DNA from: Acutalibacteraceae bacterium
GTDB lineage: Bacteria; Bacillota; Clostridia; Oscillospirales; Acutalibacteraceae
Assembly (NCBI GenBank): GCA_045536495.1
Contig: JAZSNR010000027.1
Coordinates: 549-64,548, forward strand
Length of the DNA: 64,000 bases
Reading direction: 5' to 3'
In this document: positions 2,605 to 42,848 of the stretch, one piece after another
How the letters are laid out: each line of letters begins with the position of its first letter
How positions within the stretch are numbered: position 1 is the first letter of the stretch
Program-made: the position numbers and the translations under genes
The notes under the pieces: model-generated
Seen by the model: only the letters and a program-made list of their open reading frames with translations
Databases searched by the model: none
What the model was told of the DNA's origin: nothing

Positions 2605-4152
2605 ATGGGAACAAGTACAATTTTAATTTTGATAACCATTGTTTGCTATCTCGGGATGATGATTGCAATTGGTGCAAAATTTTCAAAGAAAAACAAAGAT
2701 ACATCGGATTTCTATCTTGGTGGTAGAAAATTAGGACCTTTCGTAACAGCAATGAGTGCGGAAGCATCCGATATGAGCAGCTGGCTTCTTATGGGTCTTC
2801 CCGGTGTTGCTCTTATTGCAGGTTTGGCAGAGGCTTCATGGACTGCAATAGGTCTTGCGGTAGGTACATATATCAACTGGCTTGTAGTTGCAAAAAAAAT
2901 ACGTTTGTATTCAAGTAAAATTGATGCAGTTACATTGCCTGAGTTCTTCTCAAAAAGATTCGGTGACAATGCGGGTATATTGAAATTTATCGCTGCAGCG
3001 GTTATTATAGTATTCTTTATTCCTTACACAGCATCAGGCTTCTCTGCTTGCGGTAAGCTTTTCGAATCAATTTTCGGAATTCCTTATATGACAGCAATGA
3101 TTGTCAGCGGTATCGTTATTGTTTTATATACTGCTTTGGGCGGTTTCCTCGCAGCATCAACAACAGACTTTATTCAGTCAATTGTTATGACAATTGCGCT
3201 TGTTGTTGTTCTCGGATTCGGCATTAATTATGCAGGCGGTTGGGAACAGGTTGCTGAGAATGCAGAAAACCTTGCAGGTTATCTCAACTTTACAATCACT
3301 CATGGTGCAGGAAGCGTCAGCGAAGCGATTGCAGGCACAGCAGGTACAAAGCCTTACGGTGCGCTCACAATTGCATCAACTTTGGCTTGGGGGCTTGGTT
3401 ATTTCGGTATGCCCCACATTCTTCTCAGATTTATGGCAATTGAAAAAGTTGAAAAAATTAAACTTGCAAGAAGAGTAGCTTCTATCTGGGTTGTTATTTC
3501 AATGGCAGTTGCAATAGTTATCGGTGTTGTAGGCTACGGCGTTGTTAAGAGCGGTGTTGTTACAGGTCTTGAAGACAGCGAAAGAATAATTATTGAAATT
3601 GCAAAGGTTATCAGCGGCGAAGGTTGGATTTTCGCGATTGTTGCAGGTATCATTCTTTCAGGTATTCTTGCTTCTATTATGTCAACTGCTGATTCACAGC
3701 TTCTCGCAGCATCTTCAAGTATTTCCGAAGATATTTTCAAGGCTGTTAAGCTTAATGTTTCCGGCAAAAAGAAAATGTTGGTTGCACGAATTTCTGTTAT
3801 TGTTATAGCGATCATCGCTATGTTTATTGCAAAAGATCCCAACAGCAAGGTTTTTGAAATCGTTTCATTTGCTTGGGCAGGTTTCGGTGCAACATTCGGT
3901 GCTGTTGTTCTTTGCGCACTTTTCTTCAAACGTACAAACAAATGGGGCGCTCTTGCAGGTATGGTAAGCGGTGCTGTTATGGTATTCGTTTGGAAATTTG
4001 TTATCAGCGGTTTCGGCGGTGCATTCGCAATTTACGAGCTCCTTCCCGCGTTCATCATTTCACTTGTGCTTACAGTTGTTGTTTCTCTTGTCACTCCCGC
4101 TCCTTCAAAGGAAGTTCAGGAAACATTCGATGCTGTTAAAGCAGAAAAATAA
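2605..4152 (+). CDS. putP: sodium:proline symporter (SSS family)
   Basis: 515-aa polytopic membrane ORF with RBS GGAG. Motifs such as FYLGGRKLGP and SWLLMGLPG are typical of PutP. Confidence 0.85.
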   Translation: MGTSTILILITIVCYLGMMIAIGAKFSKKNKDTSDFYLGGRKLGPFVTAMSAEASDMSSWLLMGLPGVALIAGLAEASWTAIGLAVGTYINWLVVAKKIRLYSSKIDAVTLPEFFSKRFGDNAGILKFIAAAVIIVFFIPYTASGFSACGKLFESIFGIPYMTAMIVSGIVIVLYTALGGFLAASTTDFIQSIVMTIALVVVLGFGINYAGGWEQVAENAENLAGYLNFTITHGAGSVSEAIAGTAGTKPYGALTIASTLAWGLGYFGMPHILLRFMAIEKVEKIKLARRVASIWVVISMAVAIVIGVVGYGVVKSGVVTGLEDSERIIIEIAKVISGEGWIFAIVAGIILSGILASIMSTADSQLLAASSSISEDIFKAVKLNVSGKKKMLVARISVIVIAIIAMFIAKDPNSKVFEIVSFAWAGFGATFGAVVLCALFFKRTNKWGALAGMVSGAVMVFVWKFVISGFGGAFAIYELLPAFIISLVLTVVVSLVTPAPSKEVQETFDAVKAEK

Positions 4153-4163
4153 TCGATATTGAA

Positions 4164-4200
4164 TAAAAAACAGCCTTCCGCAAAGGAAGGTTGTTTTTTT
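4164..4200. terminator. bidirectional intrinsic terminator between putP and the GDPD gene
   Basis: The stem cagccttcc/ggaaggttg is flanked by an A-run and a T-run. Confidence 0.7.
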
Positions 4201-4960
4201 AATTCAATATTGTATTCATTTTATCAGGATTTCTTGTTGTTATATTATCTGGTGCAAGGTGGAGTATTTCATACATTTCTTTTTCGTTATTTACTGTCCA
4301 GATTGAAACTAATAAATCATTTTCGTGGAAAATATCAACAAGCTCTTTTGTTGCGTTATCTTTGTTGAAATTGATTCCTATTGCGCCGCTTTGTTTTACT
4401 TCTTCAACAAGGCTTCGAAGATATTCAGGTGTTTGTTTTTTTGGATTTTCAACATTAACATTCAAATAGTAAGGAACTTCGGGACTGTCTTTTTTCACGG
4501 CTTCCACATCTTCCTTGAAAATGCCTGTATAAAAAATTCTGTCTGAAATGCCGTGGCTTTCTGCAAGGTTAACCACCTCTTTAAGATTAGCAACACTTTT
4601 AGCATCAACGTTTACTTTTAAATTTTCGTATTCGCTGACTTTTTTGAATGCCTGGTTGAGAGTTATCTCGTTGCCTGTCGGTTTATCGTGGGCTAAAACT
4701 GCGGTTCCGTCCTCCAAAAAATTCAAATCAAATTCAACTATATCTGCACCGTATTTTGCGCCGGTTTCAATTGCTTCTAAAGAATTATCTTTTGTATCAA
4801 CACAACCTGTATGCGCTGTGTATGTGAAATTTTTTGGCAAATTAAAAGGTTTGTTTTTCAATTCTGTCAACTCCTTTTGGTTGATTATTGCCAACGCAAT
4901 TAAAATAAGAATAGCAACAAAAAGAACGCAAATAATACTTAATACTATTTTCTTTTTCAT
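4199..4960 (-). CDS. membrane-anchored glycerophosphodiester phosphodiesterase family protein
   Basis: N-terminal TM helix, then AHTGC...NSLEAIETGAKYGADIVEFDL...LAHD, which is a GDPD signature. RBS GAGGTGG. Confidence 0.8.
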   Translation of the reverse strand: MKKKIVLSIICVLFVAILILIALAIINQKELTELKNKPFNLPKNFTYTAHTGCVDTKDNSLEAIETGAKYGADIVEFDLNFLEDGTAVLAHDKPTGNEITLNQAFKKVSEYENLKVNVDAKSVANLKEVVNLAESHGISDRIFYTGIFKEDVEAVKKDSPEVPYYLNVNVENPKKQTPEYLRSLVEEVKQSGAIGINFNKDNATKELVDIFHENDLLVSIWTVNNEKEMYEILHLAPDNITTRNPDKMNTILN

Positions 4961-5228
4961 TTTACCACCTCTGATGAAAATAAATATATCACACTTTTTG
5001 GCTTTTGACTACAAAAAAGGAATATTTTATCAGGTCTAGAATAATTTTATACTTGACTTTTTTAGTTTTTTACGGAGTGAACAAAAAAACAGTTTTTTTC
5101 TTTATTTATTTTGCTTTCTTTTGCATTGCCAAGTGTAATTTTATGTTGTATAATAATGAGGAAATGTAGATTAGGGGAAGTTTGGTCAAAATTGGTCAAA
5201 TTATCTCCACCACTTTTTAAAGGGGATT

Positions 5229-7340
5229 ATGATAGTGATTCAAAAATACGATGGATGGAAAGGTTTCGAAAGCGGAACCTGGACAAGAGAAATCAACGTA
5301 AGAAGCTTTATTAAACATAATTTCACACCCTATGACGGAAACGAGAAGTTTCTTGTTGGCCCCACAAAAGCAACACTTGATTTATGGGATCAGGTTCTCG
5401 AGCTTTCCAAGCAGGAGCGAGAAGCAGGCGGCGTTCTCGATATGGATACAAAGGTAATTTCAACAATTACCTCTCACGATCCCGGCTATCTCAATAAGGA
5501 TTTGGAGAAAATTGTCGGCTTGCAGACGGACAAGCCCTTAAAACGCGCCCTTATGCCCTATGGCGGTATTCGTATGGCCGAAAAGGCTTGTAAGGATAAC
5601 GGCTATGAAATAGACCCTGAAATCAAAGAGTTTTTTACTACTCACAGAAAGACTCATAACGCAGGTGTTTTCGATGCCTACACTCCGGAAATGAGAGCTT
5701 GCCGTTCAAGCCACATTATTACAGGTCTTCCCGATGCTTACGGCAGAGGAAGAATTATCGGTGACTACAGAAGAGTTGCCCTCTACGGCGTTGACAGGCT
5801 TATTGAAGATAAAATGGAGCAGAAGGAAACAACCCGTACTGCAATGTATTCTCAGGTTATTCAGGAACGTGAAGAGCTTGCAGAGCAGATTCGTGCCCTC
5901 GAAGACCTTAAAAAGATGGCGATGAGCTACGGCTTTGATATTTCTCAACCTGCTCGCGATACAAAGGAAGCAATTCAATGGTTGTATTTCGGCTACCTTG
6001 CAGCAGTTAAGGAGCAAAACGGTGCAGCAATGTCCTTGGGCAGAACCTCAACCTTCCTTGATATTTACTCCGAAAGAGATATTAAAAACGGTGTTTATAC
6101 AGAAGAGGAAATTCAGGAAATGATTGACCATTTCATTATGAAGCTCCGTCTTATTAAATTTGCAAGAACACCTGAATATAATGCTCTTTTCTCAGGTGAT
6201 CCCCAGTGGGTTACAGAGTCCATCGGCGGTATGGCTATTGACGGACGTCACATGGTAACAAAAATGTCTTTCCGTTATCTTCATACCCTTGAAAATCTCG
6301 GTGCGGCGCCTGAACCCAACCTTACGGTTCTTTGGTCAACCCGTCTTCCTGAAAATTTCAAGCGCTTCTGTGCGAAAATTTCTATTGAGACATCTTCCGT
6401 TCAGTACGAGAACGATGACCTTATGCGTTTTCACCACGGTGACGATTATGCAATTGCTTGTTGCGTTTCTTCAATGAAATTGGGAAAAGAAATGCAGTTC
6501 TTCGGCGCAAGAGCAAACCTTGCAAAATGCCTTCTTTATGCTATCAACGGCGGTGTGGATGAAATTTCAGGCAAGCAGATTGCTCCTAAATATCGTCCCA
6601 TAACAAGCGAATACCTTGATTATAGCGAGGTTATGGAAAAATATGATGCAATGATGGAGTGGCTTGCAGGTGTTTATGTTAACACTCTTAATATAATCCA
6701 CTATATGCACGATAAATACTGCTACGAAAAAATTCAGATGGCTCTCCACGATAAAAAGGTAACCCGTTGGTTTGCAACAGGTATTGCAGGACTTTCCGTT
6801 GTTGCGGATTCTCTTTCTGCGATTAAATATGCCCGCGTTAAAACAATTCGTAACGAAGATGGTCTTGTTGTGGATTACGAGGTTGAGGGAGATTTCCCCA
6901 AATACGGTAACGATGACGACCTTGTTGACGATATCGCTTACGATATTGTTCACCGCTTTATGACTCACATTAAAAAGAATCATACCTACCGTGACGGTAT
7001 TCCAACAACATCAATTCTTACTATCACATCAAATGTTGTTTACGGTAAAAATACGGGTGCCACTCCCGACGGACGCAAGAAAGGCGAGGCTTTCGCTCCC
7101 GGTGCTAATCCTATGCACCGCCGTGACACCAAAGGTGCGGTTTCATCACTTGCATCTGTTGCAAAGCTTCCCTTTGTTGATGCTCAGGACGGTATTTCAA
7201 ACACATTCTCTATCATTCCGGGTGCTCTCGGTAAGGATGACCAAATCTTTGCAGGAGATATTGAGGTTAACCTTGACTGCACTACGGATGCTTGCGTGAG
7301 TCCGACGCTGTTTGAAGGATTAGATGCTGAAGAAGAGTAA
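5229..7340 (+). CDS. pflB: pyruvate formate-lyase catalytic core that lacks the glycyl-radical domain; ends in 30 non-homologous codons
   Basis: N-terminus WKGF..W...INVRSFI and active-site ACCVS are present. PFL homology stops at ...[11 protein letters not shown] (7247). The tail [11 protein letters not shown]...AEEE then runs to a stop at 7338-7340. The start may be GTG 5235. Confidence 0.85.
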
Positions 7341-7449
7341 TATTCGATTTGTACCACCCACCGCTAACGCGGTCCCCCCCTCCTTTTTGCTAAAGCAAAA
7401 AAGAGGGATAGCTAAGGTAAACAATTTAATTTTATTAGGAGGAAATACA
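7248..7449 (+). other. about 200-nt intervening segment that splits PFL (non-homologous tail, stop codon, 61-nt two-hairpin repeat, new RBS)
   Basis: Canonical PFLs have only 5-9 residues between the ALGK motif and NLxxLLDGY. Here about 200 nt and a frame change separate them. Confidence 0.7.
7350..7410 (+). repeat. 61-nt two-hairpin repeat element, copy 1
   Basis: Sequence: tgtaccaccca-ccgctaacgcgg-tcccccccctcctttttgctaaagcaaaaaagagggata. It reappears reverse-complemented at 8573-8631. Confidence 0.85.
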
Positions 7450-7692
7450 ATGGCAGCAACACAGAACCAGATAGATAACCTTGTTTCCCTTCTTGACGGA
7501 TATGTTCAAAAGGGTGGACATCACCTTAATGTTAACGTTTTTTCAAAAGAAACATTACTTGATGCCCAGAAACATCCCGAAAAATATCCTCAACTTACAG
7601 TTAGGGTAAGCGGTTATGCTGTTAACTTTATCAAGCTCACTAAAGAACAGCAGGACGAGGTTATTTCAAGAACATTCCACGATAAAATATAA
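7450..7692 (+). CDS. stand-alone glycyl-radical domain protein (GrcA/YfiD-like; equals the PFL C-terminus)
   Basis: AGGAGG at 7438-7443 lies 6 nt before the ATG. The 80-aa product carries GGHHLNVNV and the glycyl-radical motif RVSGYAVNF. Its stop overlaps the pflA start (TAATG). Confidence 0.85.
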
Positions 7693-8441
7693 TGACAGGT
7701 TTTATTCATTCCAAGGAAAGCTTTGGCACAGTTGATGGTCCGGGCATAAGATATGTTCTTTTTATGCAGGGCTGTCCTATGCGATGCCTTTATTGCCATA
7801 ATCCAGATACATGGAAAACCGATGAGGGCACTGAAATAACTGTTGAAGAAATTATTGAAGAGTTTAATAAAAACCGCGCTTTTTATTCTAAAGGTGGCAT
7901 AACCGTCAGCGGAGGAGAGCCTCTTCTGCAGTTGCCTTTTATAACAGAGCTTTTCAGAAAATGCAAGGAAGAAAATATTCACACTTGTATTGATACTTCG
8001 GGTATCACCTATGAAGAAGATGCAGAGTATCTTAAAAAACTGGATTTTCTTTTAGAATATACAGACCTTGTTATGCTTGATATAAAGCATATTGAAAGTG
8101 AAAATCACAAGGCGTTGACAGGGCATAGGAATGAAAATGTTCTTGCCTTTGCAAAGTACCTTGAAGAAAAAAACATTCCTCTTTGGATAAGGCATGTTGT
8201 TGTAGAAGGGTATACCAATAAAAAGGAAGATTTAATTAAATTAGGCGAATTTATCGGAGAACTTAAAAATCTTAAAGGTCTTGATGTTTTACCCTATCAT
8301 ACAATGGGAGTTAATAAGTATAAAGAATTAGGTATTCCTTATAAATTAGAAGGAATTCCGGCTCTGCCGAAATCTGAAGCTCAAAAGGCAAAGGAATATA
8401 TATTATATGGTATAAGAAAAAGCCGTCAACCGATTGGTTGA
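7692..8441 (+). CDS. pflA: pyruvate formate-lyase activating enzyme (radical SAM)
   Basis: GPGIRYVLFMQGCPMRCLYCHNPDTW contains the CX3CX2C motif. It has the typical PflA length and sits directly after the PFL genes. Confidence 0.93.
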   Translation: MTGFIHSKESFGTVDGPGIRYVLFMQGCPMRCLYCHNPDTWKTDEGTEITVEEIIEEFNKNRAFYSKGGITVSGGEPLLQLPFITELFRKCKEENIHTCIDTSGITYEEDAEYLKKLDFLLEYTDLVMLDIKHIESENHKALTGHRNENVLAFAKYLEEKNIPLWIRHVVVEGYTNKKEDLIKLGEFIGELKNLKGLDVLPYHTMGVNKYKELGIPYKLEGIPALPKSEAQKAKEYILYGIRKSRQPIG

Positions 8442-8452
8442 TGGCATTTTTT
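8422..8452 (+). terminator. intrinsic terminator of pflA
   Basis: Stem gccgtcaacc/ggttgatggc followed by a T-run. Confidence 0.65.
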
Positions 8453-8572
8453 ATGGCAAGTTGGAAGTGGTAAGTTTCGGGTCTGCGACGCTATTATAAT
8501 GCAAAATGCAAAGTTCAAAATGATAAAAGATATCAGGTGTCAGTCGCCAGGATGTAAAAGTAATGCGCATTA

Positions 8573-8631
8573 TATCCCTCTTTTTTGCTTGCAAAAAGGA
8601 GGGGGGACCACCGCAGGTGGTGGGTGGTACA
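8573..8631 (-). repeat. two-hairpin repeat element, copy 2 (inverted relative to copy 1)
   Basis: The reverse complement reads tgtaccaccca-ccacctgcggtgg-tcccccctcctttttgcaagcaaaaaagagggata. The first stem and both loops differ from copy 1, but pairing is kept. Confidence 0.85.
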
Positions 8632-8633
8632 AT

Positions 8634-8658
8634 GTAGGGGACGGATTCATCTGAATCC
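8634..8658 (+). repeat. REP-like element with the gtaggggacgg head and a palindrome
   Basis: The head gtaggggacgg is followed by the ggattca/tgaatcc hairpin. The same head occurs at 37664 and 39826. Confidence 0.6.
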
Positions 8659-8832: not shown

Positions 8833-8971
8833 GTGAGTGTAACAAAGGTACGGAACATTCCCGAAAGGGTGTGAACGTAACTTTGGTACATAGTAAACGG
8901 TATTACGGTGAGGGTGAAAGACACTTACCTGTAATATTAAAAAAATATTTTTTTAAAGGAGTTGTTCGTAA

Positions 8972-9397
8972 ATGTTTAAATTTATGAAGAGCAAAAAGGG
9001 TTTCACCCTCGTTGAATTAATGATCGTTGTTGTTATCATGGCTATCCTCGTTGCAGTTGCAGTTCCGATTTTCTCAGCTGTTACAAAGAACGCAAGAATC
9101 AAAACTTGTGCTTCCAACCGTCGTGAAATCGTTTCTCAGATCACAAACTATGCAATGTCAAAAACTGTCAACTTGGAAGGTAGTGCTCAAATCAGTTCAA
9201 CAGAAGATAGTGGTAAAGTTGATAGTTGTGACTTTATGGCAACAACAGAGTTAGCTGGTCTCTTCCAGGAAGTTCCCTATTGCCCCGGTAACGGTACATA
9301 CACAATCAAATGTCTTGAAGGTACTGGCGAAGAAGCAGGTTCTGTAAGAGTTGAAGTTACTTGCGCAGGCGGTCAGGATGCTGGCGAACACGTATAA
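8972..9397 (+). CDS. type IV pilin / pseudopilin (prepilin-type N-terminal cleavage/methylation domain)
   Basis: KKGFTLVELMIVVVIMAILVAVAVPIF is a class III signal with a G|FTLxE site. RBS AAGGAG. C-terminal cysteines are present. Confidence 0.9.
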   Translation: MFKFMKSKKGFTLVELMIVVVIMAILVAVAVPIFSAVTKNARIKTCASNRREIVSQITNYAMSKTVNLEGSAQISSTEDSGKVDSCDFMATTELAGLFQEVPYCPGNGTYTIKCLEGTGEEAGSVRVEVTCAGGQDAGEHV

Positions 9398-9516: not shown

Positions 9517-9565
9517 TTGTACGGTAAGGTTTCGTTTTTTTTACGCGAGATATGGAGGAAAAGAA

Positions 9566-10015
9566 ATGTTTAATATTATGAAAAATAAAAAAGGCTTCAC
9601 CTTGGTTGAGCTTATGATTGTTGTTGTTATTATGGCTATTCTCGTTGCAGTTGCAGTTCCTGTATTTTCTGCAGTTACAAAAAATGCAAGAATAAAAACT
9701 TGCGCCGGCAACAGAAGGGAGATTGTTTCCCAGCTCAATAACTACACTATGGGTTCAGTTGATGGAACACAGCATTTTGAAGATATGTCTTTTACAATTG
9801 AATCAGACGGTGACAAGGGAACTGTTGGTGCTACAATTTCCGGGATTACCGAAGGAAATATTAAAAAACTTTTCCACGAATTGCCTTATTGCCCTGCAGG
9901 TGACCCTGAGGCAATCGTAACCTATGAAGTTACGGTTACGAAGGTTTCCAGCGACAACGGTGAGCCTTATGCCGTGGTTGAAGTTGAATGTGACGCTGCT
10001 GAAGAGCATAATTAA
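9566..10015 (+). CDS. type IV pilin / pseudopilin, paralog of 8972-9397
   Basis: The N-terminal 45 residues are nearly identical to pilin 1 (KKGFTLVELMIVVVIMAILVAVAVP.FSAVTKNARIKTCA.NRREIVSQ). RBS GGAGGA lies before ATG 9566. The longer track ORF from 9503 is rejected. Confidence 0.9.
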   Translation: MFNIMKNKKGFTLVELMIVVVIMAILVAVAVPVFSAVTKNARIKTCAGNRREIVSQLNNYTMGSVDGTQHFEDMSFTIESDGDKGTVGATISGITEGNIKKLFHELPYCPAGDPEAIVTYEVTVTKVSSDNGEPYAVVEVECDAAEEHN

Positions 10016-37639: not shown

Positions 37640-37663
37640 TCCTCATACCTCCTTTACTAATTG

Positions 37664-37687
37664 TAGGGGACGGTCTTGACCGTCCCG
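37664..37687 (+). repeat. REP-like element (gtagggg head plus gggacggtc/gaccgtccc palindrome)
   Basis: gtaggggacggtcttgaccgtccc lies in the metY-metA spacer. Confidence 0.65.
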
Positions 37688-37692
37688 TTTTA

Positions 37693-38973
37693 TTATTCGC
37701 CAAGTGCTTGCTGAATGTCTGCAATAAGATCTTCGGCATTTTCGAGACCACAGGAAAGGCGAACAAGGTTTGCGGTAATTCCGCAAGCTTCAAGCTCTGC
37801 ATCGTTCATCTGACGGTGTGTTGCGCTTGCAGGGTGCAAACAACAGCTTCTTGCATCAGCAACGTGAGTTTCAATAGCGATAAGTTTAAGCTTTTTCATA
37901 AACTCTTCTGCGGCTTTTCTTCCGCCTTTAACACCGAATGAAACAACACCGCAAGTGCCGTTGGGAAGATATTTCTGTGCAAGCTCATAATACTTATCGT
38001 TTTCAAGACCTGCATAAGTAACCCATTCGATTTTATCATTTGCTTCAAGGAATTTTGCAACTGCAAGACCGTTTTCGCAATGACGTTTCATACGAACGTG
38101 AAGGCTTTCAAGACCCAGGTTGAGATAGAAAGCATTCTGGGGAGATTGGATTGAACCGAAATCTCTCATAAGCTGTGCAGTAGCCTTTGTAATGAATGCG
38201 CCCTCTTTGCCGAAACGCTCTGCATAGGTGATGCCGTGGTAACTGTCATCGGGAGTGCAAAGTCCGGGGAATTTGTCGGCGTGAGCCATCCAGTCGAATT
38301 TACCTGAATCAACGATGCATCCGCCAACAGCGGCACCGTGACCGTCCATATATTTTGTTGTTGAATGGGTAACAATATCTGCACCCCATTCAAAAGGGCG
38401 GCAACCTACGGGAGTTGCAAAGGTGTTGTCGATAATAAGCGGAACGCCGTGAGCGTGAGCCGCATTTGCGAATTTTTCAATATCAAGAACAGTAAGAGCA
38501 GGGTTTGCGATTGTTTCGCCGAAAACTGCTTTTGTGTTGGGGCGGAAAGCAGCATTGAGCTCTTCCTCTGTGCAGTCGGGAGAAACGAATGTGAAATCAA
38601 TACCCATTCTCTTCATTGTGACTGCGAAAAGGTTATATGTTCCGCCGTAAATTGTGGAAGAAGAAACAACGTGGTCACCGCAGGAAGCGATGTTGAAAAT
38701 TGCATAGAAGGATGCCGCCTGGCCTGAAGAGGTAAGCATTGCGGCAGTACCACCCTCAAGTTCAGCTATTTTTGCTGCAACGGAATCATTGGTAGGATTC
38801 TGCAAACGTGTGTAGAAATAGCCGTTTGCTTCAAGGTCGAAGAGCTTGCCCATATCTTCGCTTGTTGCATATTTAAAGGTTGTGCTCTGGATAATGGGAA
38901 TCTGGCGAGGTTCACCGTTACCGGGAGTGTAGCCACCCTGAACACATTTTGTTTCTATTTTGTAGTCACTCAT
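37693..38973 (-). CDS. metY: O-acetylhomoserine aminocarboxypropyltransferase (sulfhydrylase), PLP-dependent
   Basis: 426 aa of the Cys/Met metabolism PLP family (TKYM.GHG lysine motif). The N-terminus ...ETKCV.GGY.P is typical of MetY. Confidence 0.9.
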   Translation of the reverse strand: MSDYKIETKCVQGGYTPGNGEPRQIPIIQSTTFKYATSEDMGKLFDLEANGYFYTRLQNPTNDSVAAKIAELEGGTAAMLTSSGQAASFYAIFNIASCGDHVVSSSTIYGGTYNLFAVTMKRMGIDFTFVSPDCTEEELNAAFRPNTKAVFGETIANPALTVLDIEKFANAAHAHGVPLIIDNTFATPVGCRPFEWGADIVTHSTTKYMDGHGAAVGGCIVDSGKFDWMAHADKFPGLCTPDDSYHGITYAERFGKEGAFITKATAQLMRDFGSIQSPQNAFYLNLGLESLHVRMKRHCENGLAVAKFLEANDKIEWVTYAGLENDKYYELAQKYLPNGTCGVVSFGVKGGRKAAEEFMKKLKLIAIETHVADARSCCLHPASATHRQMNDAELEACGITANLVRLSCGLENAEDLIADIQQALGE

Positions 38974-39820: not shown

Positions 39821-39825
39821 GGAGT

Positions 39826-39900
39826 GTAGGGGACGGTCTTGACCGTCTCGTCCAACAATTCGCCACAATAACTTTCGGGCGGGTCAAGACCCGCCCCTAC
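39826..39900. repeat. inverted pair of REP-like elements (BIME/MITE-like, 75 nt)
   Basis: gtaggggacggtcttgaccgtc ... gggcgggtcaagacccgcccctac. The two heads face outward. Confidence 0.7.
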
Positions 39901-42330: not shown

Positions 42331-42476
42331 ATGGGTTGCTCCTGAAAGATTTATAATATAATTGGTATTATAGCAAATAAAATTATAGTGTTCAAGGATA
42401 AAGTTAGATAGACTTCGCAAACAGAAGGCAATTGAAACAAAGCAAAAAGGATATCCTTACGGATATCCTTTTTACT

Positions 42477-42570
42477 TGGCGCAGAAGGAGAAACTCGCAA
42501 GGCTCTGCCTTGCGTTCGCTACGCGAACAACCGATTGTGTTCGGCTTCGCCGAGGGAGTTCGAGTCTCTC
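42477..42570 (-). other. tRNA-Ser(GCU)-associated structured element
   Basis: Components: an inverted 15-nt T-arm copy (42556-42570), internal hairpins, a CAGAG-loop hairpin (42497-42513), then a 20-nt copy of the tRNA 3' end with CCA (42477-42496, 1 mismatch). A duplicate of the tRNA terminator follows at 42444-42473. Confidence 0.6.
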
Positions 42571-42625
42571 AACAGACTAATTGAAGTAAAACAAAAAAGA
42601 TACCCTTACGGATATCTTCTTCGTT

Positions 42626-42716
42626 TGGCGCAGAAGGAGAGACTCGAACTCTCGCGCCGGTTTCCCGACCTACGCCCTTAGCAGGGGCGCCTCGTCACCA
42701 ACTTGAGTACTTCTGC
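42626..42716 (-). tRNA. tRNA-Ser (anticodon GCU), CCA encoded
   Basis: Manual cloverleaf: acceptor GCAGAAG/CTTCTGC, anticodon arm CGCCC-CTGCTAA-GGGCG, long variable arm, T-arm GAGAG-TTCGAGT-CTCTC. Confidence 0.85.
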
Positions 42717-42759
42717 ATTGGTAACTGAAAATCAGTTATTAAATTGTCCTCAAAAGAGG

Positions 42760-42848
42760 TGGCGCAGAGAGTGGGATTCGAACCCACGGTACGTTGCCGT
42801 ACGACGGTTTTCAAGACCGTTCCGTTATAACCACTTCGGTATCTCTGC
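42760..42848 (-). tRNA. tRNA-Ser (anticodon UGA), CCA encoded
   Basis: Acceptor GCAGAGA/TCTCTGC, anticodon arm ACGGT-CTTGAAA-ACCGT, long variable arm, T-loop GGTTCGAATCC. Confidence 0.85.

Follow-up and report, generated by a model that had tools for sequence, protein, structure and literature searches.

Among glycyl radical enzymes, pyruvate formate-lyase (PFL) is the most widespread, and in gut anaerobes it is a main route to formate; it has long been asked how its buried glycine loop gets out for activation and how the oxygen-damaged enzyme is repaired. A locus of an Acutalibacteraceae bacterium (NCBI GenBank assembly GCA_045536495.1, contig JAZSNR010000027.1, positions 549 to 64,548 of the forward strand) raises the further question of whether this enzyme must be a single chain at all. 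In this stretch of 64,000 nucleotides (nt), referred to below as the window and providing all coordinates, the PFL gene is present in two pieces, namely an open reading frame (ORF) for the catalytic core and, beyond a spacer and in a different frame, an ORF of 80 amino acids (aa) that carries the glycyl radical loop. An earlier, sequence-only reading of the same DNA regarded this arrangement either as a natural two-piece glycyl radical enzyme, created by the insertion of a small element, or as a very recent inactivation. The analysis described here favors a natural enzyme: the three genes pflB-core, grcA3 and pflA most probably constitute an operon for a naturally heteromeric PFL. In its family, which is already catalogued, the locus is a typical member; it is not singular to this genome, and no published description of the family was found.

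The first of these genes, pflB-core (5229..7340), lies on the plus strand, as do all genes and signals of the operon, and encodes a catalytic subunit of 703 aa. Its barrel matches the Pfam family PFL-like over residues 20-606 (E 6e-224), and the catalytic pair Cys411-Cys412 is present within AIACCVSS (6459-6464). The protein scores 1103.8 bits on the PFL model TIGR01255 (cut-off 994.2), yet it covers profile positions 2-665 of 744 only. Likewise, in a search of solved-structure sequences, its homology to Escherichia coli PFL stops at about residue 680/681 of the latter, after ...ALGKDDQI at nt 7247. From there the reading frame continues through a tail of 30 codons (7248..7337) to the TAA at 7338-7340. 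The Pfam Gly_radical profile is divided between the two ORFs, with positions 1-51 found in core residues 622-672 and positions 49-106 in the small ORF. Unlike in a single-chain PFL, the radical domain is not on the same polypeptide as the barrel, and the Gly loop belongs to a separate ORF in another frame. The 120 closest homologues of the core are 681-722 aa long and end in the same tail; the two exceptions, P0242 and P0288, were considered as possible core fusions and rejected, being internal duplications that stem from assembly.

The small ORF (7450..7692) encodes a protein that is recognized by NCBIfam model NF038360, "autonomous glycyl radical cofactor GrcA3", with 168.6 bits (cut-off 158) over positions 2-78 of 78, and also by Pfam Gly_radical. 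It misses the cut-offs of the models for GrcA (TIGR04365, 92.7 bits against 170) and GrcA2 (NF008341, 104.3 bits against 145). The protein aligns to E. coli PFL residues 683-756 and comprises a helix, a beta-strand, the Gly loop RVSG55YAV, with Gly55 encoded at 7612-7614, and a C-terminal helix. As befits a free-standing domain, it has an ATG of its own, the RVSGY loop and a Shine-Dalgarno (SD) sequence, AGGAGG (7437..7442), which lies 7 nt upstream of the ATG at 7450, a correction of the 6 nt given by the sequence-only reading. The ORFs themselves, the ACCVS site, the end of PFL homology at 7247 and the TAATG described below were all found where that reading had placed them. More than 120 clusters of 80-aa proteins with 93-99% identity to the GrcA3 of the window exist in the protein database, several of which bear the NCBI names GrcA or GrcA3 (Oscillospiraceae, Christensenellales, Ventricola and Agathobacter metagenome-assembled genomes, MAGs); the name GrcA3 is carried by proteins that are 94-95% identical to it.

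Directly downstream, pflA (7692..8441) encodes the PFL-activating radical-SAM enzyme, which scores 316 bits on TIGR02493 (cut-off 231.75), matches Pfam Radical_SAM and Fer4_12 and contains the radical-SAM motif CPMRCLYCHN. In the sequence TAATG at 7692, the stop codon of grcA3 shares bases with the ATG of pflA, which suggests translational coupling. Since the Pfam and NCBIfam E-values for the proteins of this locus span 1e-24 to 0, chance matches are of no concern.

The same architecture recurs in a broad range of bacteria. A scan of one genome per species for relatives of the 80-aa protein yielded at least 596 genomes, and the detailed counts given here and below are drawn from the best 80 loci of these. 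A separate radical-domain ORF of 75-83 aa is present in 78 of the 80, and the split, which the sequence-only reading had left as either conserved or strain-specific, is therefore conserved. In about 75 of the 78 split loci a truncated core lies immediately upstream of the small ORF, pflA lies downstream of it in at least 65 of the 80 loci, and an SD core of at least 5 nt is found 6-10 nt, mostly 7-9 nt, upstream of the small-ORF ATG in 69 of the 78. Judging by the record titles, the carriers include Acutalibacteraceae, Oscillospiraceae, Lachnospiraceae (Blautia, Dorea, Sellimonas) and Ruminococcus, as well as Holdemania, Atopobium, Spirochaetales and Gastranaerophilales, and the closest relatives of the window locus among the best 80 are L007 and L009, both from Acutalibacteraceae. 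Of the two unsplit loci, L071 encodes a canonical PFL of 744 aa, and L041 (1841-4225), from a Treponemataceae MAG, encodes a single chain of 794 aa in which a 35-residue linker containing CMSC precedes a radical domain 88% identical to GrcA3. This latter gene may have arisen by re-fusion of a split gene, or it may represent an ancestral intermediate.

Selection has acted on all parts of the system. When synonymous and nonsynonymous differences were compared between the window and eleven relatives, synonymous sites were found to be near saturation (pS 0.4-0.9), and nonsynonymous differences amounted to 0.01-0.13 in the core body, 0.04-0.23 in the tail (against synonymous differences of 0.7-0.9 there) and 0.006-0.10 in GrcA3. 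Across body, tail and radical domain, nonsynonymous-to-synonymous ratios are 0.03-0.27. Low nonsynonymous change next to nearly saturated synonymous change indicates that core body, tail and GrcA3 are all under purifying selection. None of the marks of a pseudogene, such as a strain-specific break, relaxed selection or intact close orthologues, was observed, and the conservation and selection data contradict the proposal of a very recent inactivation. The alternative proposal, a natural two-piece glycyl radical enzyme, is strongly supported by the recurring split, the SD sequence, the presence of pflA and purifying selection in the three coding parts.

The three genes are furthermore framed as one operon by a promoter-like site and a terminator-like hairpin. 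The former, a sigma-70-like candidate at 5126..5154, was recognized by its match to the consensus (TTGCCA, 17 nt, TATAAT; 11 of 12 positions), and no promoter of comparable quality was found on the plus strand between the core gene and grcA3. The latter, at 8422-8445 (8422..8455 with its T-run), consists of a 10-bp stem with six GC pairs, followed by ATTTTTTATG.

The tail of the core deserves separate attention. The sequence-only reading had dismissed it as 30 unrelated codons, and unrelated it is as far as canonical PFLs are concerned; it nevertheless represents a conserved module under purifying selection. The tail contains an acidic Cys-x4-Cys-x2-PTLFEGLD module that canonical PFLs do not possess. 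Among 27 close homologues, no variation is seen at residues C684 (7278-7280), C689 (7293-7295), P692, T693, L694, F695, E696, L698 and D699. The protein sequence of the tail is kept in many species, distant ones included, as in the GC-rich, Ventricola-like locus L001 with its very different DNA. Variants of the motif occur in other clades, such as FELEPDCACCEPN in Blautia, Sellimonas and Dorea, or GCCE. A search of 1.84 billion representative proteins with the 35-aa tail returned C-terminal PFL fragments and chance matches in repetitive proteins; no occurrence of the module other than in PFL was detected. A derivation of the tail from the Gly-loop region, as a degenerate copy, was also considered and found no support, as a profile comparison with GrcA3 found nothing.

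In about 23 loci, the core ends in a short tail without Cys, and a spacer of 187-406 nt (982 nt in one case) encodes an additional small protein of 55-85 aa, here termed ORF X. Examples are L051 (~3700-4000), L078, L062, L037, L031, L034 and L043, to which L046, L058, L063, L070, L077 and L080 can be added. The C-terminus of ORF X carries an invariant C-x4-6-C-x2-P motif, and in a profile comparison with hhalign it matches the core tail with a probability of 97% (E 9.4e-11). Its N-terminal half (ERIDDIVAMLDDFMSKKGGHMNIKV) resembles the opening helix and strand of GrcA3 (profile probability 94.7%, E 5.8e-8), with sub-threshold NF038360 matches at profile positions 2-30. There is no Pfam family for ORF X. 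Several loci show an overlap between the beginning of ORF X and the end of the core gene. The Cys module is thus found on the core in about 52 loci and on ORF X in about 23, and this complementarity speaks for the module being part of the system.

Free-standing radical domains of the PFL type are already known from E. coli GrcA/YfiD (PDB 6OWR) and phage T4 Y06I, which share the RVSGYAV loop with GrcA3 (PMC13450708). These are activated by the PFL-activating enzyme (PFL-AE) and work in trans with a PFL body (PMC8683613, PMC13450708). YfiD differs from GrcA3 in that it comprises 127 aa with a disordered N-terminus of 60 residues, so that only GrcA3 residues 21-78 align with it (6OWR 68-125). It also differs in its partner: the PFL that YfiD rescues is full-length and has been cleaved at Gly734 by oxygen, whereas the partner gene of GrcA3 never encodes a radical domain. 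A further counterpart of the split enzyme is an engineered one. Truncated E. coli PFL, tPFL(1-695), which like the natural split core is a body without the whole radical domain, reaches wild-type activity together with YfiD once activated, and PFL-AE is able to activate free YfiD (Andorfer et al., 2021, PMC8683613). That construct is artificial, the natural cut lies about 15 residues earlier, near E. coli residue 680, and the natural body has, unlike tPFL(1-695), an added Cys tail or ORF X. In the E. coli system, PFL residues 696-733 serve as a recognition element for YfiD, and the N-terminus of YfiD also matters for binding (PMC8683613; reviewed in PMC13450708).

Based on these precedents, a working cycle can be proposed for the heteromeric PFL. 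PflA would install the radical on Gly55 of free GrcA3, which would then dock into the nine-stranded core and supply a helix of the 683-693 type, the tenth strand, the Gly loop and the C-terminal helix, thereby placing Gly55 beside Cys412. Catalysis would thereafter proceed as in single-chain PFL. When cleaved by oxygen, GrcA3 would be exchanged for a fresh copy, at the low cost of 80 residues compared with remaking an 80-kDa enzyme.

Several points weigh against a heteromeric PFL. Truncated E. coli PFL binds YfiD poorly and is poorly activated (PMC8683613), and efficient assembly of the enzyme considered here must therefore rest on other features; the GrcA3 helix that is absent from YfiD may offset the poor binding of the E. 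coli construct. The literature searched contained no biochemical, transcript or proteomic evidence for this bacterium or for any GrcA3-type system. An AlphaFold2 model of the core, built with 27 close and too similar homologues, reached a mean pLDDT of 40.8, which makes it unusable and provides no structural support, and a Foldseek search with this low-confidence model recovered E. coli PFL alone, via the sequence term. One locus, L040, lacks both the Cys tail and ORF X, the sole such case among the split loci with a core. Finally, no second PFL gene is present in the 64-kb window but a full-length PFL could be encoded elsewhere in the genome, and two Gastranaerophilales MAGs, L055 and L085 (match at ~4001-4240), contain a GrcA3-like 80-aa gene without any core in the 4 kb upstream of it.

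These last two observations also speak for the strongest rival explanation, in which GrcA3 serves as a spare part for a full-length PFL located elsewhere and the adjacent truncated PFL is inactive or otherwise employed. The name of the NCBI model, rad_fix_GrcA3, follows the same concept, and the GrcA3-like genes of L055 and L085 may indeed be truly autonomous, a spare-part role being a better fit for them than that of an obligate subunit. For the locus of the window this explanation is improbable, since the truncated core accompanies GrcA3 in the great majority of the split loci with its Cys-Cys pair intact and under strong purifying selection. Moreover, all 120 closest core homologues are truncated, the truncation point is constant and exactly complements the N-terminus of GrcA3, and GrcA3 has kept the PFL helix 683-693 that is missing in YfiD.

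A second possibility is that the two ORFs are joined during expression, be it by frameshifting, stop readthrough, ribosome hopping or an intron. The fused gene of L041 with its 35-residue linker would be compatible with such joining, as would L001, one of the loci in which both ORFs share a frame, with a single TGA and 15 nt between them. Across the loci, however, the distance from the core stop to the small-ORF ATG varies between -17 and about +400 nt, one locus reaching 982 nt, and the relative frames 0, 1 and 2 all occur, which in effect rules out recoding or splicing. Neither a fixed frame nor a conserved intervening element was found, as would be expected of an intron, intein or recoding signal, and the small ORF has a start signal of its own, its strong SD sequence and ATG being conserved. 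Most spacers are too short for an intron, and nothing credible in the region between core and grcA3 matched Rfam. Joining of the two ORFs is accordingly very improbable.

The 109-nt spacer of the window contains a repeat with two hairpins (copy 1, 7351..7410, plus strand), and the sequence-only reading suggested, as one of its two alternatives, that the split was created by the insertion of a small element here, which would supply a stop codon, hairpins and a ribosome-binding site (RBS). The repeat, 58-66 nt in length, consists of GTACCACCCACC, hairpin 1, GGTCCCCCC, hairpin 2 (TCCTTTTTGC..GCAAAAAAGAGGG) and ATA. Six copies were identified, two of them in the window about 1.1 kb apart, the second (8573..8630) being inverted, on the minus strand and 3' of the pflA terminator. 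The other four come from metagenome contigs and occur in other contexts: L087 1108-1167 (minus strand), L088 3-61, L089 1711-1776 and L090 894-952, of which those of L087 and L089 lie 5' of different genes. When folded singly, all six copies adopt an identical two-hairpin fold, and the stem of hairpin 1 varies yet stays paired (ACCGC/GCGGT, CCACC/GGTGG, ACCATTGCC/GGCAATGGT); a joint MAFFT alignment was mis-registered, as hairpin 1 differs in length, and was discarded for pair counting. Copy 1 has no U-tract and is therefore not an intrinsic terminator, and no Rfam family corresponds to the repeat; a small mobile element, a structured RNA and a site for protein binding are all conceivable.

That a repeat of such mobile appearance, some 60 nt long and with further copies nearby and in unrelated contexts, lies in the spacer could be taken to mean that its insertion recently inactivated or split the gene. 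The relatives make this scarcely credible. The repeat is absent from all 86 related loci examined, and hundreds of species have the split without the element, with purifying selection on the genes. In L007, whose radical domain is 98% identical to that of the window, a 66-nt spacer without the repeat is accompanied by the same tail, the identical RBS TTATTAGGAGGAAATACAATG and a stop codon in the same position, save for two extra Glu codons in the window. The element hence did not create the split; it contributed hairpins, as had been proposed, and neither the stop codon nor the RBS. Judged from these sequences, it is a secondary insertion in a pre-existing spacer that contributes hairpins only. 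An artefact of assembly or sequencing of this contig, finally, is just as hard to credit, for although entries with errors do exist in the family (the duplications in P0242 and P0288, and a tail frameshifted by an assembly error in L006), the same architecture appears in hundreds of assemblies from many projects, including the complete genome of Sellimonas caecigallum JCM 35759 (L044).

Further repeats were observed in the window. Short repeats of the AATGCAAAATGCAAA type are located in intergenic DNA at 8499-8513 near the pfl operon, in the spacer of L007 (3946-3962) and beside the hairpin repeat of L090 (~850-890). A terminator-like unit, TGTAGGGGACGGTCTTGACCGTCCC with a T-rich stretch, occurs at 37662-37702 and 39825-39865, and its first 12 bases recur at 8634-8645 beside repeat copy 2. 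Downstream of the operon, a 188-nt direct repeat (78% identity; 8970-9157 and 9564-9751) spans the 5' ends of two adjacent genes, whose products have N-termini resembling type IV pilins or pseudopilins (MFKFMKSKKGFTLVELMIVV...), which points to tandem paralogues. Overlapping the start of the minus-strand tRNA cluster (42629-42848) is a 68-nt direct repeat (84% identity; 42430-42497 and 42579-42646), which contains a hairpin (GGATATCC..GGATATCC).

How does the heteromeric PFL compare with what has been described or deposited so far? The term GrcA3 gave no match in the searchable literature, no description of a natural split PFL was found in the literature searched, and a review of glycyl radical enzymes from June 2026 mentions spare parts of the YfiD type only (PMC13450708). 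The small protein of the window is fully a member of NF038360, but the annotation misses its neighbor, the truncated and Cys-tailed "formate C-acetyltransferase". Two structure entries entitled "Formate acetyltransferase", PDB 38LB (739 aa) and 38LA (687 aa), contain a split-type core. Over residues 598-737, 38LB almost matches the Atopobium-like locus L084 in sequence, the Cys-rich acidic tail included, and it shares 70-75% identity with the window core over residues 517-695; it represents another lineage, and its tail is longer and richer in Cys. 38LA, with 52 residues fewer than 38LB, ends approximately where the tail begins. The GrcA3 search of solved-structure sequences returned no GrcA3-like chain from either entry, and no accompanying paper was found. 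Both entries are absent among structures released up to 2026-04-08 and are probably very recent; the split-type PFL is evidently under study by others.

Glycyl radical enzymes in which a large subunit is accompanied by small, Cys-containing polypeptides, as in the heteromeric PFL, include benzylsuccinate synthase with its beta and gamma subunits and 4-hydroxyphenylacetate decarboxylase with its small subunit (PMC13450708). In these enzymes, it is the large subunit that bears the radical, and [4Fe-4S] clusters are bound by the small ones. In the split PFL, by contrast, the radical would be on the small subunit, and the Cys module has only two to three conserved Cys.

What, then, might the Cys module contribute? 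Most likely, as we infer, the Cys tail or ORF X recognizes GrcA3, retains it or stands in for it at the docking site, possibly by means of a bound metal or redox chemistry. A metal site would be conceivable by analogy with class III ribonucleotide reductase, in which a Zn(Cys)4 site adjoins the Gly loop. More tentatively, Cys-x4-6-Cys-x2-P(T/N)L might be regarded as a third component of PFL, that is, a metal- or redox-dependent latch or placeholder that occupies or guards the docking site and controls the exchange of GrcA3; we consider this a possible but doubtful specification of the role.

The split form appears to be the usual PFL in many Oscillospirales, Lachnospiraceae and Ruminococcus. 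For annotation this means that a "formate C-acetyltransferase" of about 700 aa should not be called a pseudogene, and that the ORFs of GrcA3 and ORF X should be kept. For the biology of the enzyme, a free radical domain of 80 residues makes loop activation and repair separable and thus directly testable. The Cys tail, the small protein ORF X and the way in which the latter partly mimics the radical domain provide the most promising new lead, none of the three being described in the literature searched. If the module should indeed prove to be a latch, this would explain why E. coli PFL residues 696-733 are needed in the rescue by YfiD, and it would mean that gut anaerobes possess a PFL in which the sensing of oxygen damage and the swapping of the radical cofactor are built in.

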